Shown here: positions 3,991 through 38,735 of the stretch, piece after piece
Numbering within the stretch: position 1 is the first letter of the stretch
How the letters are laid out: each line of letters opens with the position of its first letter
Origin: Kiritimatiellia bacterium
GTDB lineage: Bacteria > Verrucomicrobiota > Kiritimatiellia > RFP12 > UBA1067
Direction of reading: 5' to 3'
Length of the DNA stretch: 64,000 bases
Assembly (NCBI GenBank): GCA_045636065.1
Contig: JAZTWW010000036.1
Location: 5,404-69,403, forward strand
Made by a program: the position numbers and the translations under genes
The notes under the pieces: generated by a model
Told to the model about the DNA's origin: nothing
The model's database searches: none
Seen by the model: the letters and a program-made list of their open reading frames with translations, nothing else

Positions 3991-4000
3991 CGCGTTGGAA

Positions 4001-4756: not shown

Positions 4757-4760
4757 GGCG

Positions 4761-6011: not shown

Positions 6012-6024
6012 CCCGCGCTCCGCC

Positions 6025-10353: not shown

Positions 10354-10433
10354 GGCGCAAAGTATATATGAAGACACGCCCCAAGTCAAGAGCGAGAAAT
10401 AAGAATTTTTTAACGGCTAAAACGCCCCGATTA

Positions 10434-11923: not shown

Positions 11924-12000
11924 TGGTGGATCCTGAGGGACTCGAACCCCCAACCTACGGAGTATGAGACCGCAGCTCTAACCAATTGAGCTAAGGATCC
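11924..12000 (-). tRNA. tRNA-Met (anticodon CAT; elongator type, could alternatively be tRNA-Ile2 if lysidinylated)
   Basis: 77-nt cloverleaf GGATCCT-TA-GCTC/AATTGGTTA/GAGC-T-GCGGT/CTCATAC/TCCGT-AGGTT-GGGGG/TTCGAGT/CCCTC-AGGATCC-A-CCA. 7-bp acceptor stem with G1-C72 (not initiator), U33, anticodon CAU, A37, encoded CCA. Confidence 0.85.
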
Positions 12001-19401: not shown

Positions 19402-19605
19402 GGTGCTATTTTACCACATTCCCCCCACCGGCGCAAGAGTTTTGGTTTCAAGGGCTATCGCCGCCTCCAATGCGCCGCGATCCACACCGGTCTGACCACC
19501 GGAAACGATCTTGACGTTCGCCACCCGTTTCGTAATGGGATTATCTGTTGTCATATGCCACTCCCCCCTGTTTCTGCAACTGTTGGACGTTTCTCATCTT
19601 TGCAT

Positions 19606-20036
19606 CTACTCCACAACTTCCCAATGCCCAAAACGTTTCCCCCCTACACGCTTTATTCGTTTATTATCTTGCAGAATATTCATGTAACGAACAAGCGTCC
19701 GTCTTGCTACACTCAGTCTTTCCGACAGTTGATCTATAGTAACGGATGGCTCCTTTTCAATAACGCTAACAATCCTTAGTGCCATAGTGCCATCTAAAGT
19801 GCCATCCACAGTGCCGCTTTCGAGCAACTTCTCTCTCAATCCGTTTCCTGCAAGTGCGACCTTTGCCTCAAACGCCGTAACGAGCCGGAATGAGAACTCC
19901 GCCTTGCCATTGCCGTTCGCTTCAAGTTCATCCTGCACCATGTTGATGCCGCGATTGTAGCAGTTGACTTAGTCCGTTCAACCCGGTACGTCTCCGTGGA
20001 CGCAAGCAGTTGTTCCAATTCACTCTGCGTTAACAT
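19606..20036 (-). pseudogene. decayed copy of the AlbA_2/HATPase_c_4 wHTH regulator (central ~450 codons deleted plus frameshift)
   Basis: The ORF at 19836-20036 (MLTQSELEQLLASTETYRVERTKS) matches the N-terminus of the intact gene at 25465-27222 (MKTLDELQILLAQGEGETVEFKETTG). The overlapping out-of-frame ORF at 19606-19941 matches its C-terminal GT-repeat linker plus wHTH. GGAGAGGAGG RBS and TATGGTATAAT promoter lie upstream. Confidence 0.6.
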
Positions 20037-20087
20037 AGCGTTTCCTCCTCTCCAAATTATACCATAACATCCGCCGCGCTGCCATCA

Positions 20088-20225
20088 AACCTCGTCAGTC
20101 AGTTTGCGCAGTTCTTCGCGGATGCGCTCGGCCTCTTCCTCGTCACCATGCATGACGGCAGGTTCAAGCAAAGCGTCAAGTCGCTTGATCGCCTCAATCG
20201 TATCGTCTCTCTGCGGCATCGCCAT
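20088..20225 (-). CDS. possible small acidic protein (45 aa)
   Basis: ATG...TGA ORF encoding MAMPQRDDTIEAIKRLDALLEPAVMHGDEEEAERIREELRKLTDEV, ending 49 nt upstream of the pseudogene start. Weak evidence. Confidence 0.25.
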
Positions 20226-20344
20226 AGTCTCTGCTACACAAAAAAAATCTATCCCTCTATCCTCCCAACCGTATCATCTCGACCGTATCACAAGGGTCTG
20301 TCCCTCGCAATTCATCTAATCCTTAACAATTCCACCGACTTTCT

Positions 20345-21079
20345 TTACAGAATAGACACATACCCCAAGCCATCGTTGGAGTCTGCGGCACCTAGAACCA
20401 GATGATCCAGAAAGCCAATTTCCAAGGAACGCGCGAGGCGTCTAAGCGTTTTCGTCAATGCCACGTCCTTCTTGCTGGGCGTCGGATCGCCGCTCGGATG
20501 ATTGTGTGCGACATAGATGTAACTCGCACTCCAGCGGACAGCATCCCGGAAGACCTCCCGCGCATAGACACGTGACGAATCAACCGACCCGCGGAACAGG
20601 CAGATTGGCTCGCAAATCGGATGCTTCCGCGCGTTCAGCGGTAGCACCCAGAAGCATTCCTGTTCTTCCTGCTCAAGTGCCGCGGTCCGGAACAGGCGAT
20701 AGGCCTCCCGTGCCGATGTCACCTTCATCAGACGAACCTCTTCCGGCTCCGGCCGTGCCGCCCGATACCCCAGCTCAAACGCCGCGGCAAGTTCCAAGCA
20801 CTTCACATGCCCAAGGCCCAGGATCGGTTTCTCCTTGTGCTCGGCATTGTACTTCTCGATCCGTGCCTCGATTGTCCGCCAATCCGAAGTGACAAGCCGC
20901 TGGATGGACCCAAATGCCGCGATCAGCCGACGGGACAGTTCCATTACATCACATCCAGCCGAACCCGTGCGCAGCAGAATTGCCAATATCGCCTCCGACG
21001 GGACCGAATGCGGACTGGCCGCACGCTCCATCTGCTCGCGCGGCTTCAGTTCCCCAGACTTCTTCTTGAAATTATTCAT
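20345..21079 (-). CDS. radC: RadC-family JAB/MPN domain protein
   Basis: JAMM motif HNHPSGDPTPSKKD and an N-terminal HhH-like segment (LGLGHVKCLELAAAF). Start overlaps the hsdR stop. Confidence 0.85.
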   Translation of the reverse strand: MNNFKKKSGELKPREQMERAASPHSVPSEAILAILLRTGSAGCDVMELSRRLIAAFGSIQRLVTSDWRTIEARIEKYNAEHKEKPILGLGHVKCLELAAAFELGYRAARPEPEEVRLMKVTSAREAYRLFRTAALEQEEQECFWVLPLNARKHPICEPICLFRGSVDSSRVYAREVFRDAVRWSASYIYVAHNHPSGDPTPSKKDVALTKTLRRLARSLEIGFLDHLVLGAADSNDGLGYVSIL

Positions 21080-24000
21080 TACGCTGCAGTATCCGGCAAT
21101 GCATAGAAATAGTTGTAAACTTCTTCAAGCAACTCGTCCTGCACCTTCGGCGAAGCCAACGCATCCGGCAAATCGGCATACAGGACATTCACAATCTCCG
21201 TCCGCACATCCGCACAAGTCGATGCCTTATCCCGCCAGTTCTCGACCGTAGACACCAAGGCCCGAAGCCGCGCAAGCAGCTCTTTAGCCACGCCCTTGAC
21301 CCTCTTCAAATCTGCCTGGGACAATTTCTCCTTCGACCTCAGGATGTCAAAGACCGCCAGCTGCTGGTTATCGTCCAGCTCCTCGCGGATATACCGCGCC
21401 TGTTCCTCGGTCACATCCTTCATGAGCTTTAGCAACTCCTGCAGGGCCTTTTCAATCGCCGCCTTGTCGTGTGCCTTATTGTACTCCTCGATAATCTCCT
21501 GCAAGGCCTGATAGTAGTTCTGGCAATGGGGGTTCTGCACGACCATGGACGAAATGACGTCCTCCGCCTTCTCGGACAGCTGCTTCAGAAGGAGCTTCTT
21601 GTACTTGTAACCCTCAATTGACTTCGCCATCCGCGAGAAGTCCAGCTTGCTCAGATCAAGCGCCACCTCATCGCACTTCTCGGCAACTGACGGCAAGGCG
21701 TTCTTCACATGGTCGCCGATGGTCTGCTGCAACTCCGCGAACAACGCCGTCAGGTCGGTCTTCTCCGCCTCACGGTGGTGCTCAATGTGCGAACGAATCT
21801 CACGAATGGCGTCCCGCTTGGCGCGGATCGTATCGCTGAGCTCGTCCGAATCAATGAACTTGGCGATGTCGTCCATCTTATTCGCCACGGCAATGAACGC
21901 CCGCGCGACATTATCCGGCGACGCCACCGCGTCTGCCGCGGTCTTCAGCATCTGCGGACGCGCCATCACATCCGCATCCAGCAACGCTTTGAGCCGGAAG
22001 CCATTGTCGGACAGCAATTTCACGTCCGCCGCAATCGCCTCTTCGTAATGCTTCAAGAGTTCTTCGATCGGCGGTAGCGGATTCTTCGGCTCTCCACCCT
22101 CGCCACCGATAACGCCGGTGAAGTCGGCGAGCGCACGGCCCAACGCATCGATGAGCCCGATGTAATCGACAATCACGCCATTGCGCTTGCCCTCGAACAC
22201 CCGATTCGCCCGCGCAATTGCCTGCATGAGCGTGTGCGCCTTGAGCGGCTTGTCGAGATAGAGCGTTCCCAGACACGGCACATCAAAGCCCGTCAGCCAC
22301 ATCGCGCACACAAAGGCGACGCGGAACGGATTCTGCGCCTTCTTGAAGTCCTTCTCCAGCTCCTTGCCCGCGATGTCCCGCTTGTAGGGCTTGATGTCGA
22401 TGCCGAATTTCTTGAAATACTCGACATCCCCCTGCTCCTGACTGATGACGAGCTCCATCCGCGTCTCTTTCATCCACGCGACACGCTCCTCCAGCTCTTG
22501 CTGGCGTTCGGCCGTCCGCCGCGCCTTCTTAACGGGATCCTTCGCCGACTCGTCCAGTTCCTCGGTGTACTTCTCCCACTCCGCGATAACGGCCTTCCAC
22601 GTGCGATACGCCGCGACCTTGTTGACGCTCACGAACATGGCCTTGCCGCTCCGCCACCGCGCAGAGTAGTCCCGCACGAAGTCCTTCGCCTTGATCGCGA
22701 TGGTCTCCGGCGCCATGTAAATCATGATCTTGGACTTGATGGCGTCATCCACCCGCTTGCGGTCCTGCGGATCGAGGTCCTCCTGCTCCACCGCCTCGAT
22801 GAGCTCCTGGTTGATGGACGGCGAATCGATGCCAAGCTTGTTGACCCGCGTCTTGTAGAAGAGCGGCACGGTTGCATGGTCCTCGACCGCGCGGTTGAAG
22901 TCGTAGACGGACACATACTGCCCGAACTGCTTCTCCGTCAAGTCACCGCGCTGAAGCGGCGTTCCCGTGAACCCGATGCGCGAGGCATCCGGCAGGAACC
23001 TGAGCATGTTGTCCGCGAAGATGCCGTTGTTGGTGCGGTGCGCCTCATCGGAGAAGATGACGATCTCATGGTCAGGATGAATCGGCGTCCATGTCGAGGA
23101 ATTGAACTTGTGGATCAGCGTGAACAGGAAACGGTCGTTCCCCTCCAGCCGTTTCCGCAGCCGCTCGCCGGACGACGGCATGCACGATTTCGGAAGCGCA
23201 TCGCCGAGGCATCCGCAGCTCGCGAACGTCCCGGCAATCTGCTCGTTCAGCTCGTCGCGGTCCGTCACGATCAAGAAGGACGGCGAACCGCCCGACTTGC
23301 GCAGGATCTTTCGCGCAAGGAACACCATCGAATAGCTCTTGCCCGACCCCTGCGTGTGCCAGAAGACGCCGATCTTCCCGTTCTTCTCCTGCCGCTTCAG
23401 ATAACTCCGATAGGCATTATTCACCCCGAGATACTGGTGGTTGCGGGCGAACACCTTGAACATGTTCCCGTCGTTCGAATCGAAGAGGATGAAGTTCTCC
23501 ACCAGATCGAGGAAGTTCGCCCGCGGGCACACCCCTTCGATAAGCTTCTTCAGCGACACGACCGCCTTGTCATCCTCGGCATGGCGCTTCCACTCCCCGA
23601 AGAACTCCCAGTCACTCCCGAGCGCCCCGATGTGCGTCTCGTTGCCGTTTGAGAAGACCAGCATCGCGTTGAAGCGGAACAGCTCGGGAATCGCGGCAAG
23701 ATAGTCCTTGTAGTTCTTGTCGTATCCTTCCTTGTCCTTGTGGGACGGCTTCTTGAACTCCATGAAGAGAAGCGGCAGTCCGTTCACGAAACCGATCAGG
23801 TCGGGACGCTTCACGAATCCCGGCGCGGTCACCCACAGCTCGCGTACGCACAGGAACTCGTTGTTCGGTCCCGTCGGATCGTCGAAGTCGATCAGCTTCG
23901 CCCGCCGCTCCGCCTCGCCGTCCTCTCCGAATTCCTCATCCGTCACCTTCACGCCGTCCCGGACGAACTCATACGCCTCGGAGTTGAGCTGCATCAGCGA

Positions 24001-24258
24001 CTTTCCGTGCTCGACGGTCTTCAGTTTTTCAATCGCCTCTTCAACCTGCGCATCCGTTATCCAGTCTCCGTTGATCCGCTTGAGTGCCGCCCGCACCGAC
24101 CGCCACAGCACCGTCTCCGACTTGTCCGCCCGCCCGAGCATCCCGTTCGGTCCAAACGTCTCGGCATCATACGCCAACACGCTCGTCCACCCGACGGCCT
24201 CCATCATTTTCGCCGCGGGTTCCTGCACGATGTTTTGTTCGGAATAGGTCCAGCTCAT
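21079..24258 (-). CDS. hsdR: type I restriction enzyme, R (endonuclease/translocase) subunit
   Basis: 1,059 aa with the N-terminal nuclease region, SF2 helicase motifs (GSGKSYSMV Walker A, DEAH box [11 protein letters not shown]) and a C-terminal helical domain. Confidence 0.92.
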
Positions 24259-24262
24259 GTGC

Positions 24263-25468
24263 TCACACCTCGATTTCCCCGCTCATCAACTTCGGCAACA
24301 GCCGATCCCGCGCCTCGGTGAGCGTACGGATTTGGCTGCGCATCGTTTGAATCTGTAAAGTCATATTACCAAGAACAGTAAATAACTTACTATCAAAATC
24401 ACCCAATTGAATTTCGGAGTCAAGGAATTCGTCAAAGGCAAAATTATTGATGCCGTTTGCACCCGCGTTTTTAAACACCTTCATTTTCCCTGACGACTGC
24501 AAATACTTGATATGCCATGCCAAAACAATTGACATTTGATTGTCTATCGGGCGCATGAACTTACAAAAGCTTGCGCATATCACAACATCATCAAACCAAG
24601 ATAACATATCATCCGAGACAAGCAAACTTCTTCCAATGTTATCGATATTACCATTTGACAACTCAATGATTATATCCCCACTAATTAATCGTTTGGTCTC
24701 TATATCATGCTTAGAATGAACTCTCAAAGGAATAGAGCTCTTGTTACCATACGATAAATCGTCAATATCAGTTCCTCGAATAACGTAACCACATTCGGTA
24801 AACTTGCCAATACTATTTTCTTTACCCCATCCCCCATTGGCATAATGGCGCAAAATCTCCCAAATCCTCTTCTTCTCCCCCTTGCCATCCTTGAACCATT
24901 CGCGATAGAGGCGCATGGCGGCCTCTTCCAGAAGCGCGATCTGCTTGCGGCAATTCGCAATCGCCGAATCGTAGTCGGAGAGTATCGCGACAATTTGCGA
25001 CCTTACATTCTTCTCCGGCACAGGGATCTCTAAATTCCGCAATTGATCAAGTGATATGTATTGCTGACTTGACCCTCGAAAATTACCGCGCAGAGCACCC
25101 TGTCCCATTGGGCTCGTCAAATAATAATAAAGCCATTTCGCTTTTTCCTCATCCCCGGACATTTTAAACAATGCAATATTCTTAATGGCATAATCGGGAT
25201 CATCCTTAACAATGGCACATTCCCCAACCGTGCCAATCATCGTCATCAGAATATCCCAGCGATCAACTTTGCTTCTCTCGTTGATCTTCCTATAATCTTT
25301 TTCTGAAATCAAATAAGCATCTTCAACCCGAACAACACCCTGCTTCACAACCTTTGATGTCACTAGCGGCTTTCCTCCACCCTCTACAGATTTGGGGCTA
25401 TCGTGCGTTCCATCGCGAACAGAAGCACAAAATTCAGCCGCCTTTTGCAAAACCCACTTGCTCATCAC
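24263..25468 (-). CDS. hsdS: type I R-M specificity subunit
   Basis: Two target-recognition domains separated by a conserved central repeat. Very AT-rich DNA relative to its surroundings. Sits between the regulator and hsdR with 4-nt spacing or overlaps. Confidence 0.85.
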
Positions 25469-27222
25469 CGCGCCTCCCCGACGAGATGGTAGCCACCAGT
25501 CTTCTTGCTGCCGCGGTGCTCGACCTTTCCGGCCGCGATCAATGCGGCAAGGGCTCGCTCAACAGTGGCCTTGCTCTTGCCAACGCGCAAGACAATCTCC
25601 GGCTTGTTAATTCCCGGTCGCGATTTTATCGCCTCATTTATCGCCTCATTTATCGCCTCAGGGGATTTTATCGCCTCACCCTTTTGGCCAGTTTTTCGAT
25701 AAGGCATCTGCTTGTCGTTACGCGACTGTATGATCTTGGCCTCTCGCAAGGTCGACAAAGCATTGTTGATGGTACGCAAGGCCATCCCCGTCCTCGCGCA
25801 AATCTGCGGAATTGTCACGCTTTTATCGGCAATAAGCTCGTGAAGCACGGTCTCAACATTCGCACGTGCATCCTTGCGAAGCTTTGGAAGACGAGCGAGC
25901 AGTTCCCCGATGTTATCCGCAGCTGTAGTGCCAATTATCGTCCAACCTGTGCCAGATAATCCGTGACCAGTGCCAGTTCTGTCCGAAGCAGTGCCAGTTC
26001 TTGCGGCAACAATGCCATTTCTTTGATCGGGCGTATTGACGCCTGTCCAATCTGGGCGCTTGAAAATGGTGGTGACACAACCGTATTCTTCTTTGACCTT
26101 TGGTACGGGCAACCCCACCCTGACACATTCATTGGCAATCCGAGTAAGCCCGCGTCCCCATGTCTCGATGGATTTGCGCAGATACAGGACGCGCGCGATT
26201 TTCTCATTCCGCGGTTCCGAATGTTGGATTGGCGGTGAATACAATCTGGCGAGGTTGAAATCTGACGGGAACTTCCCGGGGTTCTTGATTTCAACCCGGT
26301 CATCGTAGATGGCGAGGTAAATCGTTTGGCTGCGGTTTTCGTAGCTGCGATGGGCAAAGGCGTTCACCAACGCTTCGCGGAGTGCGTCCGCAGGAATCTC
26401 CAGCTCTTCGTCTCGTTCGATCTTGCCGCTCGTCCATGCCGCCAGATTCAAATGCTTGAAGCAGAAAGCCATCGCAGCGTCTATCATCTTGAAGACATTG
26501 CCCTGCACATGGGAATTGTCGAGGAACACCCGCTGATCAGTTCCCTTGAACCATCCCATCTTAATTTCGAGTTGCGGATAATCGATGCGATCCGCCTTCC
26601 CGAAAAGCACGGCGGCACCATTCAACAGAGTTCCATTCTTCCTCAGCTTGAAATGGTCGAGCAACGAGGCGGCGTTTTCGGTATCGACACTTTCATCAAG
26701 CCGCCCGACCCGCACCGCCTTTCGCGCCGTATCTCGAATGACATCCAAATCAAGATCGTCGAGCGACAGTTCCGGATTCGGCTGATCTTCCCATTCGCTC
26801 CTGAATCCACCCCTCGCAAGGAGCATCCGCTCGTACTCCTCCTGGCTCATTACAGTCGTTGAGGACTGCACACGCTTGTGCGGCTTTCCATCGTAGATAT
26901 AGGGCTTGCGGTTCCCGCCATCGACATGACACACGATGGCCGTATGCGTGTCGTCAATAGGAACATACGAAACCTCAATATCCGCCGCAGGCTCGAACTT
27001 CTGAAATGCCTCGAAAAGATCGCGCTTTGTCGTATCGGCAATCAGCTGTCCTGTCAGTCGGCCCTTGCGTGTCACGCCGAAAACAACCGTGCCTCCATCC
27101 TTGTTTAGAAACGCGCACAAAGTCTCGCAGGCGTCAACGCGCTGTCCGGTCGTTTCCTTGAATTCGACCGTCTCGCCTTCGCCCTGGGCAAGCAGAATTT
27201 GCAGTTCATCTAATGTCTTCAC
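25465..27222 (-). CDS. AlbA_2 (Schlafen-like) + HATPase_c_4 + C-terminal wHTH putative transcriptional regulator
   Basis: N-terminal ...LQILLAQGEGETVEFKETTGQ... signature of the AAA-4/AlbA_2 family. C-terminus has a GT-rich linker, an AINEAINEAIK repeat and two wHTH-like segments. Overlaps hsdM (ATGA) and hsdS (ATGA). Confidence 0.8.
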   Translation of the reverse strand: MKTLDELQILLAQGEGETVEFKETTGQRVDACETLCAFLNKDGGTVVFGVTRKGRLTGQLIADTTKRDLFEAFQKFEPAADIEVSYVPIDDTHTAIVCHVDGGNRKPYIYDGKPHKRVQSSTTVMSQEEYERMLLARGGFRSEWEDQPNPELSLDDLDLDVIRDTARKAVRVGRLDESVDTENAASLLDHFKLRKNGTLLNGAAVLFGKADRIDYPQLEIKMGWFKGTDQRVFLDNSHVQGNVFKMIDAAMAFCFKHLNLAAWTSGKIERDEELEIPADALREALVNAFAHRSYENRSQTIYLAIYDDRVEIKNPGKFPSDFNLARLYSPPIQHSEPRNEKIARVLYLRKSIETWGRGLTRIANECVRVGLPVPKVKEEYGCVTTIFKRPDWTGVNTPDQRNGIVAARTGTASDRTGTGHGLSGTGWTIIGTTAADNIGELLARLPKLRKDARANVETVLHELIADKSVTIPQICARTGMALRTINNALSTLREAKIIQSRNDKQMPYRKTGQKGEAIKSPEAINEAINEAIKSRPGINKPEIVLRVGKSKATVERALAALIAAGKVEHRGSKKTGGYHLVGEAR

Positions 27223-29021
27223 AACCCCAGCCCCTTCAAGTTCTTGTCGATGGACTTCATAAGCGCGGCAGATTCGTCTTGCAGTTTCAACAGCTCGGCG
27301 TGAATCTCCTTCATGCGCGACTTGAAATCAACCGTGTCCTTTGGCGGCGGCGGAACGCCCACGTAACTGCCGGGGTTGAGCGACCACTTCTTTGCTTCGA
27401 TGTCGGCAACCGCGGCAGATTTGCAAAGCCCGGGGGTGTCCTCGTAGGTTCCCTTTTCGCCGAACTTGGACACAAGCCAATCTCGCTCTGCGGCAAGTTC
27501 GTCGCGCTCTTTGCGGACGGCCTCGGCTTGCTCGGCTTTACGAAGAAGGTCTTTCTTCTCGTTCCGCCAACCCTTCTCCTTCGCCGCCTCGACCTTCTCT
27601 ACCTCAGCGCGGAACTTCGCCGGATCGCCTGCCGCCTTCACCTGCAAATCAAGCGCGGAAAGCGCCGCCTTGTAATCCTCCAGCAGCTTCGCGTACTTCT
27701 CCTTCTCGCCGCGCCAGAGCCAGCGGATCGCCGAGATATTCCGAATCTGCCACGGCGTCCACTCGTTGTGCGTCGTGTCGATCACATGGAAGTAATTCCG
27801 CATGTCGAGGAAAAGCACCTCGTTCTTCCGCGTCGCCGGCTTCTGCTTGTCAAAGAACCAAAGCGTACACGGCAGCGACTTCGTGAAGAAGAAGTTGTTG
27901 CCGACGCTCAGCATTGAATCGACATGTCCCGACTTGACGAGCTTCGAGCGGATCAGCTGCTCGTTGCCGTCCGCATCGGGAGCGGATGCCGCCATCACGA
28001 ATCCCGCCTTGCCGGTCGCGTTCAGGTAGGAATAGAAATACTGGATCCAAAGGTAGTTGCCGTTGGAAACGATGTCGTCCTTGTTCACGCCTGGAGAGCC
28101 GAAGACAAGCCGTGGATCGTTCAGGACCGACTTGCCCTTCAATCCGTGACAGTTGAACGGCGGATTCGCCATCACGTAGTTGCATTTGCCGCGCAGATGA
28201 TGGGCGTCATTGAAGAACGTGTTCGCGCCCTCTCCGTAGGCGATCTTCGACGGATCGAACCCGTGCACGGCCATGTTCATCAGACAGATCTTGCCGTTCG
28301 TATCCGTCTTTTCCTGTCCGAAGAACGTCAACAGCTGGTTCGCGTTCCCGCCCGACTCCGAAACGAAGTCGCCGGACGAAATGAACATGCCGCCCGATCC
28401 GCAAGCTGGATCCAGCACGATGCCCTTCTTCGGTTCCAGGAAGCTCACGATCAGCCGTACGATCGGTTTCGGCGTGAAGAACACGCCATCATCACTCGCC
28501 ACCTGCGGTGCAAAGCATCCGAGGAAGTATTCGTAGATACGCCCGAACGCGTCATCGCCCAACTTGGAAATCTTCTCGTCCGCGAAGTTCCGCAAGAGCC
28601 CACGCAGCAAGTCCGGCGTCAGCTGATTGTAGGTCTTGGGAAGAACGCCCTTCAACACCGGCATCGCATCCTCAATCGCCTTCATCGCATCATTGACCGC
28701 CTTGCAGATATCGGCATTCTCAGGGAGCCCCGTCAGATAGTCGTACCGCGCATTCTCCGGTACGAACATGGCGGACTCCTTGATGAAGTCATCCGCCCGC
28801 ACCGGCCGCGGCACTCCATTCCGACACGGCCAGTTCTTCGACTCCTTAAGCTTCTTCTCAATCAGCCGGAACCGAAACGTCGCATGCCGCAGAAATATGA
28901 TGCCCAGTACCGGCATGTAATACATCTGCGATGTGAGCGACGACTCATTTCTCAGCGAGTCCGCCGTCTCCCACAGGCTCTTCTCCAACTCATCCAACGA
29001 TGTCTGCTGTTCAGTTGTCAT
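27219..29021 (-). CDS. hsdM: type I R-M N6-adenine DNA methyltransferase subunit
   Basis: HsdM N-domain, motif I VLDPACGSGGMF, motif IV MANPPFN. Confidence 0.92.
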   Translation of the reverse strand: MTTEQQTSLDELEKSLWETADSLRNESSLTSQMYYMPVLGIIFLRHATFRFRLIEKKLKESKNWPCRNGVPRPVRADDFIKESAMFVPENARYDYLTGLPENADICKAVNDAMKAIEDAMPVLKGVLPKTYNQLTPDLLRGLLRNFADEKISKLGDDAFGRIYEYFLGCFAPQVASDDGVFFTPKPIVRLIVSFLEPKKGIVLDPACGSGGMFISSGDFVSESGGNANQLLTFFGQEKTDTNGKICLMNMAVHGFDPSKIAYGEGANTFFNDAHHLRGKCNYVMANPPFNCHGLKGKSVLNDPRLVFGSPGVNKDDIVSNGNYLWIQYFYSYLNATGKAGFVMAASAPDADGNEQLIRSKLVKSGHVDSMLSVGNNFFFTKSLPCTLWFFDKQKPATRKNEVLFLDMRNYFHVIDTTHNEWTPWQIRNISAIRWLWRGEKEKYAKLLEDYKAALSALDLQVKAAGDPAKFRAEVEKVEAAKEKGWRNEKKDLLRKAEQAEAVRKERDELAAERDWLVSKFGEKGTYEDTPGLCKSAAVADIEAKKWSLNPGSYVGVPPPPKDTVDFKSRMKEIHAELLKLQDESAALMKSIDKNLKGLGL

Positions 29022-29043
29022 TGCATCACTTTCTCAAATTTGG

Positions 29044-30702
29044 TCAACTCCAATCTCTTGGATTTATGCCATTGGCAGCAGCCGTCTTCTTGAACATTAT
29101 TTTCAACCCCGCTGTAAATCTCGCGACCGCCTGCTGATTTGATGAATCCGCGACCCAAAACCTCATCAACTCAATAAAAAAAGGTTCATACCTGCTCCAA
29201 ATCGCTTTTGTTTCAGCTCGGCGAACTCCTTCTGTACTCCTTCCCGATGCATGCAAATCACTTATCTTCCGTTCCATGGCCTCCCAATCGCTCTCAATCC
29301 TACTGAAATATGTCCGACTATAACCATTATTAGTAGCTGCAGGGGAATGCCAAAAAGTGTCTGCGCCACCATGACACAACCTCTTGCCATACTCGAATAG
29401 AAATTGCTCTGGAGATTTGTTATCACCAGGCAATACTATAAGATTGTTTGTAACATCCTGTTTTTTATCGCCATCCAAAACCGCAAAGGCAGTGGATTTC
29501 ACGGACAAGCACCCGTCTTTAAAAATCGTCTCAAGATTAGTTGCCCCAATGAAAGATCCGACGAAATGGAAATGTGTTCGCAAGTGCTCTATCCCTGATC
29601 CCCGACAGAAGATATGATCCAGCAAAACACCCAAAACGACCCTTGCCTCATCATCCTCTGCAAGCACCGGGATCTTCCGTCCCTCATACAAATCCCTGCG
29701 GGTACAATTCTTCAGATGCATCCTGATTTTAAACATATCAGGATCCGGCAATACACTTATATGATCAAGGTCGTCGATGAAGTATATAACATTGTCGCCC
29801 TTCGTCAGCACATCTTCTAGCAACGCAAGGCTATGCGTTGTACAAATGACTTGAATCTTATAGTCTGTTGCATATTTTCGCAGCAACTCGCACAGTTCAA
29901 TCTGCAAAGACGGATGAAGAGTAGCATCAAGCTCATCAATCAACAAAACGCTTTCTGTAAAACCTGTTTTAGTCGACAACTTCTCATAGTAATATCGCAG
30001 CGACACTAATGCACGCAAAATACATAATACATTATCCTCTCCCGATGAAATCGTGTTCGAATCTACACCCTGCACCGTTGTCTCAAATTCTTCACAGCAC
30101 TTCAATGATGCAACATTACTTACCACATGCTTTGCGCCCATCTCTATTCGGGTCAACCGCTTATATAGGTCCGCCAGCTCATTGTTATATTCCACAGGCA
30201 ACTGTTTTCCAACGCGTCTGGTTGCAACATCATCCGCCAGCTCTCCTCGCGGAAGCAATCGAGGCAAGCCCAAATAGATCACTGGCATCTCAGGCAACTT
30301 CTCATGGGTTCCTGGCGCATAATTTGGTTTTACCGCAAAGCGAAAATTCTGATCTGACCTGTGTCGTCTAAAATTCAAAGCCAACCCATTCTCGTAGTTG
30401 ATTGTAAACAACGTGCCCACAATACCACGCGCTGGGTCACGATATTTTTTATCGCCCCGAACCAACGATTCAATTTTGCAATTCATCCCAGCATTGATAC
30501 GGGCAATGATGCTGACACACGCGCCGTCAAGCATTCGAGGATTCGCCGACTGCTTAGCTCGCTTGTACGCATTACTAATCATATGTAAAACAGAACTTTT
30601 ACAAGTTCCGTTTGTGCCTGATATAATATTCACGCCCGGACAAAAGTCCAAATCCAAGCCCTTCAGCTTGCGATATTGCACAATTGACAATTTCGAAATC
30701 AT
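29044..30702 (-). CDS. OLD/GajA-like ABC-type ATPase with C-terminal TOPRIM-like region (solo, no helicase partner)
   Basis: Walker A GTNGTCKSS, ABC-signature-like SGEDNV, Walker B/D-loop LLIDELDATLHP, H-loop ICTTHS. The C-terminal ~200 aa has an acidic Glu motif (IPVLAEDDEARVV) and a DxD motif (AFAVLDGDKK) spaced as in TOPRIM. 552 aa matches class 1 OLD/GajA length. Confidence 0.6.
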   Translation of the reverse strand: MISKLSIVQYRKLKGLDLDFCPGVNIISGTNGTCKSSVLHMISNAYKRAKQSANPRMLDGACVSIIARINAGMNCKIESLVRGDKKYRDPARGIVGTLFTINYENGLALNFRRHRSDQNFRFAVKPNYAPGTHEKLPEMPVIYLGLPRLLPRGELADDVATRRVGKQLPVEYNNELADLYKRLTRIEMGAKHVVSNVASLKCCEEFETTVQGVDSNTISSGEDNVLCILRALVSLRYYYEKLSTKTGFTESVLLIDELDATLHPSLQIELCELLRKYATDYKIQVICTTHSLALLEDVLTKGDNVIYFIDDLDHISVLPDPDMFKIRMHLKNCTRRDLYEGRKIPVLAEDDEARVVLGVLLDHIFCRGSGIEHLRTHFHFVGSFIGATNLETIFKDGCLSVKSTAFAVLDGDKKQDVTNNLIVLPGDNKSPEQFLFEYGKRLCHGGADTFWHSPAATNNGYSRTYFSRIESDWEAMERKISDLHASGRSTEGVRRAETKAIWSRYEPFFIELMRFWVADSSNQQAVARFTAGLKIMFKKTAAANGINPRDWS

Positions 30703-30720
30703 TTCAACCTCGCTTCCTCA

Positions 30721-31590
30721 TCAGATGAAAAGTCTATCCATCCCAACACGACGAACTTCGGACATTGTAGGAATCAACTCTTTTCGCCCGAAAAACATCA
30801 CTTCTTTCCCGTTCCCATTGTTTGCCAAACTATAGTTGAGCGTAAACTTTCTGCTGGGAAGTCCCTTGTAAATCTTGCATATCTGCGGCACGTCATCATA
30901 CGAAACGATCCAAGGGCACGTAACATCTGACTTGATCTTGGCACACAAAGCCTGATGTTTCTTCTCATCAAAGAAATTCTGATACAAGTCTTTCCCCTTA
31001 CGGTAATACGGGGGGTCAAAATAGACAAAAGCGTTTGCCTCAAACTGTTTAAGCTGCCTGGAAATAAAGCTCTCCACGTCTCTGTTGAACACATGGATTT
31101 GCTTTCTCTTTCGTCCGATCGCTTCTATCTTTTTTGATAAGTCATTCTTCGGATAACGCACATCAAGTTTCCACGCGCCCTGCTCCATTCCCCCAATCGG
31201 TCCCGAAGATAAAATACCCGAATGATTTGTGCGATTCAAAAAGAAAGTCGCAAAGCCATATTCCAATGCGTATTTCTTCCCCGTCAGGTAAATCTCTCGT
31301 TGCTTCTTCCATTCATCAAGTGTGACGGGGGTACTATGAAGCATATCAATAAATGCATCATTCTCTTGTACAACAGCCTTCCAGAACGAATAAATTGCGG
31401 GATCCGAATCGTTGATCACAATTTCAGAGACAACATCACGCAAAAGCAAATCTATCGCTATTCCAGCACCTCCAGCGAACGGCTCAACATACACAGAACA
31501 ATTATCACCGGACTTGTTTACCAACAACTCAATGAGTTTGCTGATTTTATATTTTCCACCGGGATATCGTAGTGGTGACGGATTACCCAT
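30721..31590 (-). CDS. D12-class (Dam-like) N6-adenine DNA methyltransferase
   Basis: YPGGK (Dam K-WAGGK equivalent), motif I EPFAGGAGI, FFLNRTNHSG (Dam NRTxFNG region), motif IV VYFDPPYY. Confidence 0.85.
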   Translation of the reverse strand: MGNPSPLRYPGGKYKISKLIELLVNKSGDNCSVYVEPFAGGAGIAIDLLLRDVVSEIVINDSDPAIYSFWKAVVQENDAFIDMLHSTPVTLDEWKKQREIYLTGKKYALEYGFATFFLNRTNHSGILSSGPIGGMEQGAWKLDVRYPKNDLSKKIEAIGRKRKQIHVFNRDVESFISRQLKQFEANAFVYFDPPYYRKGKDLYQNFFDEKKHQALCAKIKSDVTCPWIVSYDDVPQICKIYKGLPSRKFTLNYSLANNGNGKEVMFFGRKELIPTMSEVRRVGMDRLFI

Positions 31591-32878
31591 TGCTCGCTCC
31601 CCTTTCTCTCTTGCAGTGAAGTCTTAACAGCCCGCCAACAATCAAAGACATCGCAATCGTTTGCGCAAGATTATAACTCCCCGTGTAATTATGTGCGCCC
31701 GTCTGCAACAACCCAACGATGTTGCTTTTAGTGACGGCATTTTGCGCCAAGAAAGTTTTTTGGTCCTGCGAAAGCGATGCCTTGGCATCATCAAAGCCAT
31801 TCATCACCAATGCACTCATGTCGCGAGAGGACGAACACTTTGCAATCAACTCGCACTCCAAGCGCAATGCCATACGGATAAGTGCAGGGAATCGATCCGA
31901 TAAATTGTCTTTATGCTTTTCATAGTAATTATACAAGTCCAGAATATCGCGATACAAATTTGCCGGCTCACCAACATCCAAATCTAATTTTCCGCCGAAG
32001 AGAGCCATTGACGAAGAGCCAACCCTCCTAGGCAATCGTGCAGCCTGTTGTGCATCCGTGGAGGAAACATTTAAACATTGAAAATCATCTGACTTCAAAT
32101 CAACGTCATGATATTCTTTATCTGCGTCAGCATCAACAATGGCCTTCAACTTTGGATCAATCAAAACGCAAAGCGGCTCTTTGCGCCCATTTCGCGTACT
32201 AATCCTCTTGTCTTTTACCAGAGAAAAAATGTGCTCTAACAGCCTCTGCGTATCCTTGGCATTATGCCGAGACGAGACGCGTCCCTTTTCAATCTTTATG
32301 CCGATGCTTTTCATCCTCGGATTCGTCAGCACCTCTTCGCGCACAAATCGCTGATTTAGATAACTCGTCGCCTCAACCCTTCCATCCAACATTTCATTCA
32401 ATTGCAGCAACACACTCTTGGGTTGCTTCATGAATTTATACAGGAACACATCACGCGCTATCTGATCCCACGAGCCTGTATCCGCATGTTTACGCCAAAC
32501 ACTCTCAATAGCAACATCCTCAGATGCCACACAACAAGGCAAAACCTCAGGGCAATCTGGCATCTTGAATTTCAAGTCACAAAACTCAGGATACAACCCC
32601 AACTTAAGCATCGCAAGGATTACACGCCTATTCCCATCATAAACGATTGGCGCACCATTCTTGTAAACAACCGTGGGCAATTCGCTGAAATCATAACGTG
32701 CCCCCATCTTCTTCGCGAGTTTCTTGATCTCCCACTTCTTACCCGCATCAACAAGCGCATGCCGGATGACAGTCTCATTTTTACTCCTTGACGAAATGGG
32801 GTCACGTGGATTCTCCGTCCAAAGAACCAAATCCCTGACAGGGATTTTCTCTACAGTCTGTTTTTCTTGATTATCCAT
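31583..32878 (-). CDS. ParB/Srx-fold (ParBc-like) N-terminal domain protein with ~320-aa unknown C-terminal region
   Basis: IPVRDLVLWTENPRDPI...VYDGNRRVILAMLKLG matches ParB (P..NPR...iaGeRRlrAa). The start codon overlaps the Dam gene end by 8 nt. Start set at an ATG (the track start is a TTG 4 codons upstream). Confidence 0.6.
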   Translation of the reverse strand: MDNQEKQTVEKIPVRDLVLWTENPRDPISSRSKNETVIRHALVDAGKKWEIKKLAKKMGARYDFSELPTVVYKNGAPIVYDGNRRVILAMLKLGLYPEFCDLKFKMPDCPEVLPCCVASEDVAIESVWRKHADTGSWDQIARDVFLYKFMKQPKSVLLQLNEMLDGRVEATSYLNQRFVREEVLTNPRMKSIGIKIEKGRVSSRHNAKDTQRLLEHIFSLVKDKRISTRNGRKEPLCVLIDPKLKAIVDADADKEYHDVDLKSDDFQCLNVSSTDAQQAARLPRRVGSSSMALFGGKLDLDVGEPANLYRDILDLYNYYEKHKDNLSDRFPALIRMALRLECELIAKCSSSRDMSALVMNGFDDAKASLSQDQKTFLAQNAVTKSNIVGLLQTGAHNYTGSYNLAQTIAMSLIVGGLLRLHCKRERGASNG

Positions 32879-32905
32879 ACAGTGATCCAATTATGGTGTT
32901 TATAA

Positions 32906-33475
32906 TTATAACATTTTAATGGTGGGGAGCACGAGATGATGGGCAATCTTCGCGCGAGCGAGGAACATCAAATCGACAATCCCGACGAATCGCGCTTTGA
33001 CATATTCCTGCCAGGTCTTGCCTTTGGGAAATTTTATGTTGCCCTTGCCACAGGTCGATTCCCAGCCGAACTCTGTTCCGGGATCAAACTTGACGACTTC
33101 AGCGCTGAACGGACTAGAATCAGGCTTCTTCCTCCCGAACCAAGCGACATCAACAAGGTTGTTCTGCTTGTTGCAAATCCATGACGGAGTAAAGACCTCT
33201 GAACGTTTCACCACGCGCTGACGCTGCTCCTCGGCGCTCTTGTCGACACGCGGACGGATCACGGGATTGTCCTTGTCGACAATCTGCTCTATCCGAATCT
33301 CGTCACCGGCACCGAATCCCTTGCCGCGCTCAGCATAGTCATCCGTCGCCCAAATAAGGTTTCGCCACGTCGATCGGTCTTTCAAGAGTACGGCAAGCAC
33401 TTCTTCTGGAATGTTCCATTCCAGAATGTCGCGGCCAAAGCCGCTTGTCCCCTTTGTGTTTTGCTTAATCATCAT
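32906..33475 (-). CDS. hypothetical protein (possible degenerate gamma-class MTase N-terminal fragment)
   Basis: SEVFTPSWICNKQNNLVD resembles MTase motif X (GxVyTPxxiVxxMv). KFDPGTEFGW is at most a degenerate motif I. No other motifs were found. Confidence 0.4.
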   Translation of the reverse strand: MMIKQNTKGTSGFGRDILEWNIPEEVLAVLLKDRSTWRNLIWATDDYAERGKGFGAGDEIRIEQIVDKDNPVIRPRVDKSAEEQRQRVVKRSEVFTPSWICNKQNNLVDVAWFGRKKPDSSPFSAEVVKFDPGTEFGWESTCGKGNIKFPKGKTWQEYVKARFVGIVDLMFLARAKIAHHLVLPTIKML

Positions 33476-33483
33476 TTCTAGGT

Positions 33484-33496
33484 TAATATTATACCA
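33484..33496 (-). promoter_or_regulatory. putative extended -10 (TGGTATAAT) overlapping the ORF6N stop, upstream of the 32906-33475 gene
   Basis: Minus strand caggaaTGGTATAATatt. The -10 is at plus 33488-33493, only about 12 nt before the ATG (near-leaderless). Confidence 0.35.
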
Positions 33497-34448
33497 TTCC
33501 TGTCGTTTTTACGCCCACCACAAACACTGACTTCTTGATGCGGCGAATATCGGCGGAATCTAGCTTCGTGAAGGCGAAGCACTTCTTGCCGAGGTCTTTC
33601 AGCGATGCGCCTATCAGGTAGAGTTCCTTGTCATCGACGATGAGAAAGCGGTCATGGAACGATTCATTGTAGCGAACGGAGAGCTCCGGGTATTGGGCGT
33701 TGAAGGTCTTGATATCGGCATCGGAAATCTTGCGGTGCGGCATGTGCTTCTTGTCGTAATGCTCCGACGTGAAGACCGTCACCTTCACGCCCTTGCGCTT
33801 CTTCGCGAAGAGGTCGAGCACCTCCGTCGTCGCCCAGTTGTCGATGAGCATCAGCGAACTCTTCGCTCCAGCGACCAGCTTCAGCACCAACGCCCGCGCA
33901 TCCCACAGCTGCCCGTCGTAAAACACGCCCTGAATAGGCGTTTCAGTCGCGTCAATGCGCTGCAGGATGGAATCTACTTTCGCATCCGTGGCAATCTGCC
34001 GCTTCTCCACCGCCTCGATTCGCTGAAACATCTGCGCGTTCGCAAGCAAGAACCGACGCATCGCAGAGAAGGCCCGCATAATGCGGATGTTCACTTCGAT
34101 GGCCGTAGGCGAACGGAGGACGCTGCTCAACATGGCAATACCATTTTCCGTAAAAGCGTATGGGAGCTGACGATCACCGCCCCAACTTGAGATGCCATTT
34201 TGGCATTTCAAGTTATCCCATTCTTCGGCGGACAGTCTGAACATGAAGTCCTCCGGGAATCGCTCTTCGTTGCGCTTGACCTGCCTGTTCAACGCCCCGG
34301 TCGCCACGCCATACAACCTTGCCACATCGCGATCAAGTATGACCTGCACTCCTCGAATAGGCTTGATCAACGCCTGAATGTTGCCCGTATCACTCACGAC
34401 AACAGCCTGTACTTGCTGACCGGAAATGGCATTCCCATTCTGCCTCAT
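33489..34448 (-). CDS. ORF6N (KilA-N-like) domain protein with unknown C-terminal domain
   Basis: IRGVQVILDRDVARLYGVATGALNRQVKRNEERFPEDFMFRLSAEEWDNL is a typical ORF6N/Rha-like N-domain. Start set at the ATG 34448 (AAAGGAGG RBS 5 nt upstream). Confidence 0.65.
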   Translation of the reverse strand: MRQNGNAISGQQVQAVVVSDTGNIQALIKPIRGVQVILDRDVARLYGVATGALNRQVKRNEERFPEDFMFRLSAEEWDNLKCQNGISSWGGDRQLPYAFTENGIAMLSSVLRSPTAIEVNIRIMRAFSAMRRFLLANAQMFQRIEAVEKRQIATDAKVDSILQRIDATETPIQGVFYDGQLWDARALVLKLVAGAKSSLMLIDNWATTEVLDLFAKKRKGVKVTVFTSEHYDKKHMPHRKISDADIKTFNAQYPELSVRYNESFHDRFLIVDDKELYLIGASLKDLGKKCFAFTKLDSADIRRIKKSVFVVGVKTTGMV

Positions 34449-34596
34449 GCCGCCTCCTTTACATCCGCAATCCGCTTGAGCAGCAGACAACTGGACTTAT
34501 CGCAATTTGCGACAAGTTCATACGTTTCAAGCCGCACGTCTGGCCGGACGGTCCCGTTCGGCTGGTCCACGGCAATCTGGGTTTCGCTTGCGCTCA
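34446..34596 (-). CDS. possible 49-aa upstream ORF translationally coupled (ATGA) to the ORF6N gene
   Basis: MSASETQIAVDQPNGTVRPDVRLETYELVANCDKSSCLLLKRIADVKEAA. Its stop overlaps the ORF6N start. A TTTGGTATAAT -10 lies 16 nt upstream of its ATG. Confidence 0.3.
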
Positions 34597-34604
34597 TTTG
34601 GGCT

Positions 34605-34640
34605 TTCCTTCTGGCGAATATTATACCAAATTACGCGCTA
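34605..34640 (-). promoter_or_regulatory. putative operon promoter (extended -10 TTTGGTATAAT) at the right edge of the defence island
   Basis: Minus strand aaTTTGGTATAATattcgccag. The -10 is at plus 34612-34617. It is the first promoter-like element upstream of the co-directional gene string from 34596 down to 20345. Confidence 0.45.
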
Positions 34641-34700
34641 TGGCGCAACGAGCGCAATCGGTCGGCGACGGGGGTGGAGGCGAGGGGAAAGGGGATCTGG

Positions 34701-35564
34701 CTATGGCTTGAGATGCGAGAGCTTTTCGGAGATTGACTTGAGAAGTTCGCCCTGCTCGCGCAGGAGGGTGTCGCGCGCGGCCTCCCTCGCTTCACGCGCA
34801 GCCTTTTCCTTGGCATCCTTGTCCTTAGTCATCCTCTCCATAAGCCCTGACGATATGATGCCCGTGGGGATGGCGACCGCAGCAAGGCCGGAGAAGGCGA
34901 TGAACGCCCCGATTAAGCGGCCGATGGCGGTTACCGGGTAGATGTCACCGTAACCGACGGTCGTAAGCGTAGCTACGGCCCACCAGAGCCCCGAGAATGC
35001 GTTTCTGAACACCTCCGGCTGCACCCGGTGTTCGGCGGAATACATGAGAAGCGAGGACATCAGCATCAGAATCGCCACGAAAAAGAGCGATCCTAGAAGC
35101 TCGCGCTTCTTGGCCGCCATCACCTCGCCAAGCGATTTCATCGCGTCGAAATAGCGGTTGAGCTTGAATATCCTGAGAAGCCGCACAAGCCGAAGCGCCC
35201 TTATACCGAGCATGGTCCCTGGCAGGAACATCGGTAGCCAGAACGGCAGGATCGAGACAAGATCCACTATCGCCATCGGCGAAATCACATATCTGAGGCG
35301 CGACGCCAGAACGCCGCTTTCCGGATAGAGGAAATCGGCCGTCAAGATCCTAAGGGCGTATTCGATCGTAAATACGATCGATACCACCCCTTCAACTAGC
35401 ACAAGGACTTCGATCACCTCCGGCTCAAGATCGAAGGTGGATGCAAACACGATCGCGACGCTCGCCATGATAAGCGTCGTTATAACCCAGTCGAAAGCCC
35501 TGCTCAGGAGCGATTTCCCCTCGTCCGGCTCGACTATCTCGTAGATCTTCCTGCGGCATTCCAT
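34701..35564 (-). CDS. potassium channel (voltage-gated/Kch-like ion transport protein)
   Basis: K+ selectivity filter TVGYGD and an S4-like basic segment (RALRLVRLLRIFKL). Confidence 0.85.
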   Translation of the reverse strand: MECRRKIYEIVEPDEGKSLLSRAFDWVITTLIMASVAIVFASTFDLEPEVIEVLVLVEGVVSIVFTIEYALRILTADFLYPESGVLASRLRYVISPMAIVDLVSILPFWLPMFLPGTMLGIRALRLVRLLRIFKLNRYFDAMKSLGEVMAAKKRELLGSLFFVAILMLMSSLLMYSAEHRVQPEVFRNAFSGLWWAVATLTTVGYGDIYPVTAIGRLIGAFIAFSGLAAVAIPTGIISSGLMERMTKDKDAKEKAAREAREAARDTLLREQGELLKSISEKLSHLKP

Positions 35565-35638
35565 CTCTTTTACCCTTTCCTTTAAAATCCTGGCCTATCC
35601 GCCCTAAAGCCCCATCTCCGCACGATTGCGCGACGCCA

Positions 35639-38474: not shown

Positions 38475-38725
38475 TTCGCCTTCGGCGCGCGCCGGCTCGT
38501 GGCCTCGATGACGTTCACCTGGTTCCTGAGCTGCGAAAGGATCTGCTGGATGATGTCATCGTCGCCCATGACGTCCATCTTCATGCGGCTGACGCTACCA
38601 TCCTCCGTAGGACCGACCTGGAGCGTCTGGATGTTGTATCCGCGCCCGGATATCAGCCCCACAATCCGCGCCAGCACGCCGGGTCGGTTCTCAACGAAGC
38701 AGTTTATGCGATGAAGTTCACTCAT
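38471..38725 (-). CDS. ilvN: acetolactate synthase small (regulatory) subunit, short ACT-only form
   Basis: ACT-domain N-terminus (ENRPGVLARIVGLISGRGYNIQTL). Immediately downstream of ilvB. Confidence 0.85.
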   Translation of the reverse strand: MSELHRINCFVENRPGVLARIVGLISGRGYNIQTLQVGPTEDGSVSRMKMDVMGDDDIIQQILSQLRNQVNVIEATSRRAPKAK

Positions 38726-38735
38726 TTTCGCCCCC

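Follow-up and report, generated by a model that had tools for sequence, protein, structure and literature searches.

The immigration control region of Escherichia coli, in which hsd, mrr and mcrBC lie between yjiA and yjiN, is bounded by conserved anchor genes and owes its definition to the empty site in E. coli C, and the cassette-like variation of its content has been ascribed to recombination through the flanks (PMC12707154). The cDHS1 and cDHS2 loci of Pseudomonas aeruginosa likewise have core flanks and belong to no group of mobile genetic elements; transfer by transduction or transformation followed by homologous recombination, without scars of mobile elements, has been proposed for them (PMC10250203). 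Here we describe a locus from a Kiritimatiellia bacterium that appears to fit this model of recombination-driven defence hotspots and leaves current views standing. It lies in a 64,000-nucleotide stretch of contig JAZTWW010000036.1 (assembly GCA_045636065.1; positions 5,404 to 69,403, forward strand), hereafter the window, and consists of a 15,092-bp strain-variable block at window positions 19551-34642. Most probably, the block is a non-self-mobile composite anti-phage defence island, seated in the interval between a K+ channel gene and an aminotransferase gene of a gut Kiritimatiellia species and turned over by homologous and illegitimate recombination.

Like the immigration control region, the locus places defence genes, including type I hsdRMS, between anchor genes, has an empty allele in a close relative and lacks mobility genes; unlike it, it belongs to another phylum with other anchor genes, shows two alleles where enterobacteria show many, has a scarred empty allele, and carries cargo that includes PD-lambda-5-like and PDC-S05 modules. 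With cDHS1 and cDHS2 it shares a GC content below that of the core and the stacking of several defence systems, whereas no tRNA or noncoding RNA gene abuts the site here and population sampling is minimal. The locus thus offers a cleanly delimited case of defence-island turnover without mobility genes in a poorly studied, uncultured gut phylum. Of modest added interest are the scar in the empty allele, relic gene fragments that recur at the edges of other islands, and a putative ParB-fold effector family; the case also provides three datable relics and an inferred recombination tract in one flank.

An earlier note on this DNA, made from the letters alone, had placed a mosaic island at 19440-34690, bounded by core genes, and proposed alignment with close relatives as a means of finding the empty site. 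Two metagenome contigs of a roughly 99%-identical strain now define that site to the base pair, within 110 bp of the proposed left border and 50 bp of the right. One (L001) is an ENA contig found by exact-protein look-up of the aminotransferase; the other (L162), from a second sample, was reached through a look-up of the MscS protein and is identical to the first over its whole length. Both lack the block and have the K+ channel gene as the immediate upstream neighbour of the aminotransferase gene: contig positions 1-3825 correspond to window 38467-34643 (98.95% identity in L001), and from 3825 on the contigs follow the window from 19550 downward (99.46% over 19550-17877). The two arms share a single base pair (G) at the junction, without target duplication. 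Within the species, both alleles are bordered by the K+ channel and aminotransferase genes, which are 99% identical between them. The block is a present/absent polymorphism at a defined site among close relatives, as a classical genomic island should be.

The empty allele is not a pristine one, a point that the earlier borders missed. At the left edge of the island sits a 47-codon stub of a cpYpsA (SLOG) gene (19411..19554, minus strand; Pfam PF12694, E=3.9e-7), whose ATG (19554-19552) and GGGGAG Shine-Dalgarno sequence fall on the island side of the junction. The sister strain keeps codons 2-47 of this stub as a 140-bp island-derived remnant; its allele is thus a scarred site and not a virgin target, and truly foreign DNA reaches left to about 19411. 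The stub's N-terminus, MT(T/A)DNPITKRV, recurs in two independent homologues (P0167 and P0169). The empty allele accordingly reads as the descendant of an island-bearing ancestor, probably through a deletion that ended in codon 2 of the stub; on this account the sister strain would carry a 15,092-bp deletion allele that retains 140 bp of the island's last gene.

The island comprises 12 co-directional, tightly packed genes, all on the minus strand. The order of transcription is a 50-aa open reading frame (ORF), PDC-S05, p189, the ParB-like gene, Dam, an ATPase, HsdM, AlbA_2, HsdS, HsdR, RadC, a 46-aa ORF and a winged helix-turn-helix (wHTH) ORF. From the small ORF that starts at 34597 down to RadC, intergenic gaps are at most 27 bp, and overlaps of stop and start codons are frequent. 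Pfam and PADLOC profiles identify a type I restriction-modification (R-M) system, a PD-Lambda-5_B methylase with its partner, PDC-S05 and an AAA_15 ATPase, so that the block holds the two or more adjacent systems by which a defence island is recognized.

Composition sets the block apart from its host. Its GC content of 0.520 compares with 0.612 in the remainder of the window, and in non-overlapping 500-bp windows the mean inside is 0.521 (range 0.42-0.62) against 0.612 (sd 0.034) outside (Mann-Whitney p=2e-11). The profile runs at 0.60-0.67 in the flanks, drops to 0.49-0.53 at ~19.3 kb and stays low until ~34.7 kb. Tetranucleotide distances in 2-kb windows are 0.31-0.66 inside, every value exceeding the outside maximum of 0.294. 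By both measures the block has the atypical composition expected of a genomic island. The drop and the mosaic character described in the earlier note are thereby borne out, as are its statements that AT content peaks within hsdS (the most AT-rich gene, GC 0.437, with the lowest 500-bp window, 0.41) and that the Dam/ParB/ATPase block is low; its inside range of 40-55% was too narrow, the 500-bp values extending from about 41 to 62%. Third-position GC (GC3) separates the genes further. HsdR (0.82) and HsdM (0.78) are host-like (flanking genes, 0.72-0.86); HsdS (0.48), the ATPase (0.46), Dam (0.48), the ParB-like gene (0.50) and the left-border wHTH remnant (0.46) are foreign; AlbA_2 (0.61), RadC (0.67) and p189 (0.62) are intermediate. 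The block joins, at gene boundaries, modules that fall into at least three classes of composition.

Searches for the signatures of a mobile element came back negative, in keeping with what had been noted from the letters. No integrase or transposase domain occurs among the island ORFs or within ~20 kb on each side; the earlier note had held that an integrase or att site just outside the window would tell against its view, and an integrase beyond the block would not belong to the indel anyway. The 15 kb contain no phage or plasmid structural or replication gene. There is no tRNA gene at the site, the only one in the window being tRNA-Met at 11924-12000, 7.5 kb away, and neither a repeat search nor the junction alignment revealed direct, inverted or att-like repeats at the borders. 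The integrase, adjacent tRNA and flanking direct repeats of a classical island are hence all missing, as are the features of a transposon: there is no transposase domain, there are no terminal inverted repeats, and the junction overlap is only 1 bp. Scans for retron and CRISPR features, by Rfam at gathering thresholds and by tandem repeats, were both negative. A plasmid or phage origin was considered and dropped when megablast with the complete island as query gave no match in plasmid or phage collections.

RadC-type genes are common on mobile elements, and the island carries one. Together with the prophage in which PD-lambda-5 was first found and the three IMG/VR viral contigs that hold relatives of the ParB-like/Dam module, this could suggest that the block is the degraded remnant of a site-specific element—an integrative mobilisable element, a prophage or a satellite—that has lost its integrase and att sites. 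We regard such an origin as improbable, given that the block has no integrase, transposase, phage or plasmid gene, tRNA, border repeat or junction duplication, that it matches no plasmid or phage by megablast, and that it combines modules of three or more compositions, which meet at gene boundaries.

Three truncated genes speak for a history of remodelling by recombination. The first, the cpYpsA stub, has a counterpart elsewhere: window 19460-19547 is 85% identical over 88 bp to a cpYpsA pseudogene in another contig (L179). That contig carries, at 301-7823, a defence island with an ORF6N protein, a C5 methylase and MutH-like nuclease (type II R-M), and SIR2 with HerA; it ends in a frameshifted cpYpsA gene (57 + 74 aa) adjoining a core hybrid-cluster-protein gene, an arrangement that mirrors the window's stub.

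The second relic is a pseudogene of the AlbA_2/HATPase_c_4/wHTH family at the left border (19606..20036, minus strand). It consists of an N-terminal fragment (20036-19962) and a C-terminal fragment (19968-19606) that overlap by 7 nt (GTCAACT) in different frames, which points to an internal deletion with a frameshift. The first 25 aa share 84-88% identity with P0148 and P0158, and the last 120 aa share 92% with P0121; the homologues carry PF13749 and PF04326. The earlier note had taken this ORF for a decayed duplicate of the AlbA_2 gene inside the island, a view that does not survive: neither blastn nor tblastn matches 19400-20400 to that internal gene or to the rest of the island, and BLASTP yields only 32% identity over 41 aa of the wHTH region. 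It is a pseudogene of a different AlbA_2-family gene. The promoter attributed to it amounts to a match to the consensus (ATGGCA-18-TATAAT with TG); the extended -10 element, TGGTATAAT, lies at 20056-20064 (minus strand), ~20 nt upstream of the pseudogene start.

Relatives of this fragment also sit in other islands. Its C-terminal piece is 90.9% identical at the nucleotide level over 372 bp to two contigs (L177 and L178), the gene in L177 being truncated as well. The L177 island holds Mrr, a KAP NTPase, an OLD-family nuclease and a type III R-M system, with the truncated AlbA_2 gene at its edge followed by an N-terminal fragment of hsdS. The pseudogene is most naturally taken for a leftover of an earlier type I R-M operon. 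In L177 the fragment (10001-10552) stands at the boundary between core and island. The idea that the relic in L178 is followed by a PDC-S05-like gene, as in a circular or tandem element, was rejected on finding an hsdS N-terminal fragment and an Mrr-like gene there instead. Many gut-metagenome ORFs, P0121, P0122, P0148, P0158 and P0164 among them, are differently truncated versions of one AlbA_2-family gene; most keep the segment from ...CYNRGINMVQDEL or a few residues downstream, and most also retain the C-terminal wHTH. P0121 begins with MPQRDD..., as if the 46-aa ORF had been fused, with a frameshift, to the AlbA_2-family gene.

The third relic, p189 (32906..33475, minus strand), is a chimeric ORF of 189 aa, of which the first ~155 represent the N-terminal part of a type IIG/Eco57I-like R-M methylase (PADLOC MTase_II PDLC03390, 2.1e-35, profile positions 6-146/327); tblastn matches it to the N-termini of plasmid Eco57I-type genes annotated as 'restriction endonuclease / subunit M'. 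Over window 33003-30608 an independent contig (L171) shows 97.2% identity, and farther upstream the two are unrelated. The end of this identity marks a module breakpoint at 33003, coincident with a step in GC. In L171 the stretch upstream of that point shows no continuous reading frame, and p189 therefore seems to take its last 34 codons from the leader of the low-GC genes that follow.

That the same fragments recur at the edges of unrelated defence islands (L177 and L179), in gut Kiritimatiellia and neighbouring taxa, raises the speculative idea that they—the ~370-bp AlbA_2 C-terminal piece and the 5' stub of cpYpsA—serve as portable homology anchors for integrase-free exchange of cassettes between loci and genomes. 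Such a role would explain why the same segment is kept in many independent truncations (P0121, P0122, P0148, P0158 and P0164), and we hold it to be a long shot.

The right flank may add a further trace of recombination. Relative to L001 it has 29 SNPs in the 1408 bp next to the island (34643-36050) and 11 in the following 2417 bp, a ~4.5-fold difference in density; the shift is abrupt, falls within the ccsA-like gene, and involves mostly synonymous differences. For this change, p=0.0003 in a max-chi-square permutation test whose splits stay 300 bp or more away from the ends; the end-restricted form was used because the unrestricted test (p=0.05) suffers from end effects. We take 34643..36050, which covers the K+ channel gene together with the last third (3') of the ccsA-like gene, to be a probable tract of homologous recombination. 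The left flank has six of its nine SNPs in 19120-19204, and the 346 bp beside the junction are free of them.

Two histories fit these data. In one, an illegitimate deletion removed the block from the sister lineage and the right flank recombined separately; in the other, a scar-bearing recipient re-acquired the island from a roughly 2%-diverged donor, with one crossover in or near the cpYpsA stub and the other in ccsA. Both need only general recombination. A more austere account holds that the island is ancestral in the species, that a clean 15,092-bp illegitimate deletion with 1-bp microhomology in the sister strain is the sole event, and that the SNP cluster is an unrelated tract. It departs from our preferred explanation in the last step only. 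It draws strength from the stub codons 2-47 left in the empty allele without their native ATG and Shine-Dalgarno sequence, from a junction that shares just 1 bp, and from the identity of the strains over 346 bp to its left; yet it requires a coincidence to place a ~4.5-fold SNP density, switching within a gene, in the 1.4 kb abutting the island, and the foreign composition and relics mark a block built by earlier transfers. We judge it a possible account, clearly less probable than our preferred explanation. The three relics, the breakpoint at 33003 seen against a 97%-identical contig, and the SNP cluster that ends in the ccsA-like gene together favour recombination-mediated remodelling over site-specific integration, as the earlier note had surmised.

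Several observations weigh against our preferred explanation. The direction of the last event is ambiguous, being either loss in the sister strain or re-acquisition via the stub and right flank, and the signal of flank recombination is one-sided, the 346 bp left of the junction being SNP-free. Two alleles have been seen at the site, the island and the scarred empty one; the single alternative comes from effectively one strain in two samples, which does not demonstrate a multi-allelic hotspot; the relics imply earlier, different cargo. In 160 Kiritimatiellia loci the aminotransferase keeps its downstream 396-aa neighbour and has neither the K+ channel nor an island gene on its upstream side; 'bounded by core genes' therefore holds only within the species. 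What stands of the earlier claim is that the two genes border the empty site of a close relative; they are joined at strain level only, and the K+ channel gene has a GC of just 56.8%. At the level of modules, the ParB-like protein matches the PD-Lambda-5_A profile over only ~80 N-terminal residues and not over its full length. Finally, the window is probably part of a metagenome-assembled contig, in which a mis-join is a formal possibility.

That last point leads to the possibility that foreign low-GC contigs were mis-joined at the locus during assembly or binning. In its favour are the probable metagenomic origin of the window, the single 156-kb NCBI contig that is the sole record of an identical 47-aa stub protein, and the absence of exact records elsewhere for the three island proteins looked up (HsdM, the ParB-like protein and PDC-S05). 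The fabric of the locus argues otherwise: both junctions are single and clean and lie in one intergenic region, the cpYpsA ORF runs seamlessly across the left junction with its native N-terminus, gene gaps do not exceed 27 bp, island and flanks share one orientation, and HsdR and HsdM have host-like GC3. We consider an artefact very unlikely.

Wider comparison is limited by the rarity of the species, of which the collections searched hold four contigs in all. Scans of genome contigs and of JGI metagenome contigs with the aminotransferase gave other species only, at no more than 78% amino acid identity, the best matches being metagenome-assembled genomes (MAGs) of gut and rumen Kiritimatiellia, and exact-protein look-ups of the K+ channel, HsdM, the ParB-like protein, PDC-S05, the 396-aa neighbour and the stub produced no strain-level comparators. 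In other species only the aminotransferase side is syntenic. A cross-species hotspot was rejected because the closest species carry core genes upstream of the aminotransferase and, in one contig (L016), a low-GC glycosyltransferase cluster, with no defence genes. The L016 cluster, from a Verrucomicrobia/Kiritimatiellia MAG (2491-9048; ~7 kb at 0.40-0.53 GC), lies immediately upstream of the orthologous aminotransferase gene and encodes GT8, GT10 FucT and GT17 enzymes, a cytidylyltransferase and a racemase. The position upstream of the aminotransferase may thus be a flexible region for other cargo too.

Among the modules, the best-described relative is that of the low-GC trio. PD-lambda-5 is a two-gene, methyltransferase-containing system, first found in a prophage, that gives broad protection in E. 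coli and has been read as a compacted combination of R-M and abortive infection (Vassallo et al. 2022; PMC9519451). The second gene of the trio encodes a Dam-family (D12) N6-adenine methyltransferase of 289 aa (30721..31590, minus strand; Pfam MethyltransfD12, 1e-21) that matches the PD-Lambda-5_B profile PDLC04018 across residues 3-280 (E=7.7e-106), as expected of the B component. Its upstream partner, a 431-aa ParB-like protein (31583..32878, minus strand), has an N-terminal ParB/sulfiredoxin-fold domain with an invariant DGNRR and a helical C-terminal domain. It has no Pfam or NCBIfam match; against PD-Lambda-5_A its best match is PDLC04007, a weak one (6.3e-9) over residues 14-97 and profile positions 4-83/454. 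The third gene encodes an ABC-type ATPase of 552 aa with AAA_15/AAA_21 domains (29044..30702, minus strand), PtuA/GajA/AriA-like and with no Toprim detected, whose first 31 aa are also present in L171. The trio resembles PD-lambda-5 in its A-then-B gene order, its overlapping genes, a Dam that fits the B profile and a partner that shares the N-terminal ~80 residues. It differs in that the remainder of the 431-aa partner matches no PD-Lambda-5_A profile and that an ATPase gene follows, as it also does in two IMG/VR contigs. From these likenesses the trio appears to be a PD-lambda-5 variant. The IMG/VR contigs (L174 and L175) keep the order ParB-like, Dam and ATPase, with identities of 39%, 37% and 25%.

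Structure prediction lends the ParB-like protein a provisional identity. An AlphaFold2 model built on a 32-sequence alignment has a mean pLDDT of 88.8, and Foldseek matches its N-terminal domain to ParB CTPase and sulfiredoxin folds with a probability of 0.96-0.99, albeit at weak E-values near 2e-3. This predicted fold agrees with the invariant DGNRR motif and with the weak N-terminal match to PD-Lambda-5_A, and backs the 'ParB' label of the earlier note. An assignment of the C-terminal domain to HEPN was dropped, given Foldseek probabilities of 0.03-0.21 and an alignment consensus without R-x4-6-H. The family comprises at least 1307 members, hypothetical proteins of ~415 aa that all lack a Pfam domain. 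In the other contigs examined, the gene is always followed by a D12 methylase and lies within other defence islands; the protein is a putative effector partnered with the methylase. In six contigs (L165-L170, 1095-7739), the ParB-like/Dam pair adjoins a PLD-SNF2 helicase (1120 aa) and an MmeI/Eco57I-type methylase (1092 aa), with AbiEii and a further AAA_15 ATPase farther downstream; this island is on record from at least six places in 15 contigs. The trio thereby draws attention to an uncharacterised family of candidate effectors, ~1300 ParB/Srx-fold proteins without a Pfam model, always paired with a methylase of the Dam type and sometimes with an ABC-type ATPase, which would extend the experimentally validated PD-lambda-5 system.

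The type I R-M operon is complete, HsdR, HsdM and HsdS all being present with full-length domain matches. HsdM (600 aa; 27219..29021, minus strand) carries N6_Mtase (8.7e-70) and HsdM_N domains; HsdS (401 aa; 24263..25468, minus strand) matches PADLOC Specificity_I (5.5e-55, residues 2-401) and Pfam Methylase_S; HsdR (1059 aa; 21079..24258, minus strand) has HSDR_N, SWI2_SNF2, T1R_D3-like and T1RH-like_C domains. Inside the operon, with a 4-nt overlap at each end, sits a gene for a 585-aa protein with AlbA_2 (Schlafen-type), HATPase_c_4 and double wHTH domains (25465..27222, minus strand; PF04326, 3.9e-18; PF13749, 1.8e-16). Other type I R-M operons are known to hold an additional gene between hsdM and hsdS, for example prrC or the rlo genes of Campylobacter. 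As in these, the accessory gene is translationally coupled within the hsd operon; unlike the prrC type, its AlbA_2/HATPase_c_4/wHTH product is, judged by its sequence, no PrrC-type anticodon nuclease. The same AlbA_2-type gene adjoins hsdR on an Arcobacter plasmid. Within the gene, a perfect 12-nt tandem repeat in three copies, TTTATCGCCTCA (25625-25660), encodes (EAIN)x3 between the two wHTH domains and is a possible site of in-frame slippage.

PDC-S05 is a 319-aa ORF6N and PLD-like protein read from the ATG at 34448 (33489..34448, minus strand; Pfam ORF6N, 2.8e-32, with a weak PLDc_2). It matches the PADLOC profile PDLC04869 over its length (residues 29-317, profile positions 8-295/306, E=8.3e-109). 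One PDC-S05 representative protected E. coli against T7, T5 and T4; it is annotated with a RhuM domain and may belong to a different subfamily (bioRxiv 10.1101/2024.09.26.614923).

Taken as a whole, the island would act as a stack of independent immunity modules with one direction of transcription. The type I system (hsdM, AlbA_2, hsdS and hsdR) would methylate self DNA and cut unmodified DNA, and the embedded AlbA_2-HATPase-wHTH protein is probably an accessory or back-up effector or a regulator. In the PD-lambda-5-like module, the Dam-family methylase may mark and protect self DNA, while the ParB/Srx-fold protein, probably with the ABC-type ATPase, would attack unmarked or foreign DNA or abort on encountering it (compare Septu PtuA/PtuB and PARIS AriA/AriB). 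PDC-S05 would make a third module, as a single-gene candidate system. Gain, loss and assembly would proceed by general recombination without an integrase: cassettes of differing composition would be swapped at gene boundaries, leaving three truncated genes behind, and the whole locus would be exchanged through its homologous flanks. The indel and its junctions, the composition, the domain content, the relics and the SNP cluster are direct observations; the protection that each module gives against phages, the parts played by the ParB-like protein, the ATPase and AlbA_2, and the sequence of events are inferred.

Three further island genes remain. A 50-aa ORF (34445..34597, minus strand), read from the sequence, overlaps the PDC-S05 start by ATGA and has no family match; an extended -10 element, TGGTATAAT at 34628-34620 (minus strand), lies ~20 nt upstream of it. 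A RadC-like JAB protein (20345..21079, minus strand; Pfam RadC, 4.4e-30; NCBIfam TIGR00608, 143.6 bits, above cutoff) has a start that overlaps the hsdR stop by 1 nt. The 46-aa ORF (20085..20225, minus strand) lies upstream of the AlbA_2 pseudogene, with a promoter-like site at 20085-20056.

The flanking genes lie on the minus strand, as do those of the island. On the left is the aminotransferase (NCBIfam PRK06836, 503 bits); on the right are the voltage-gated-type K+ channel, the CcsA-like protein, MscS and AroE; farther out lie genes for release factor, MetK, Fba, HisS and similar proteins. The stop codon of the cpYpsA stub overlaps the -10 element of the aminotransferase gene. This extended -10, TGGTAAAAT (within 19402-19416, minus strand), ends 6 nt before the aminotransferase ATG, a spacing that implies a leaderless or near-leaderless mRNA. 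Downstream of the aminotransferase, window 16978-18168 encodes the 396-aa protein, which has no Pfam family and is syntenic with the aminotransferase in most Kiritimatiellia loci examined, at 26-48% identity. On the far right, three independent sister-strain contigs (L001, L162 and L163) all stop at window 38467, the start of aroE, which suggests a second strain-variable junction or a repeat between aroE and a TPP-enzyme gene (38467-38735).

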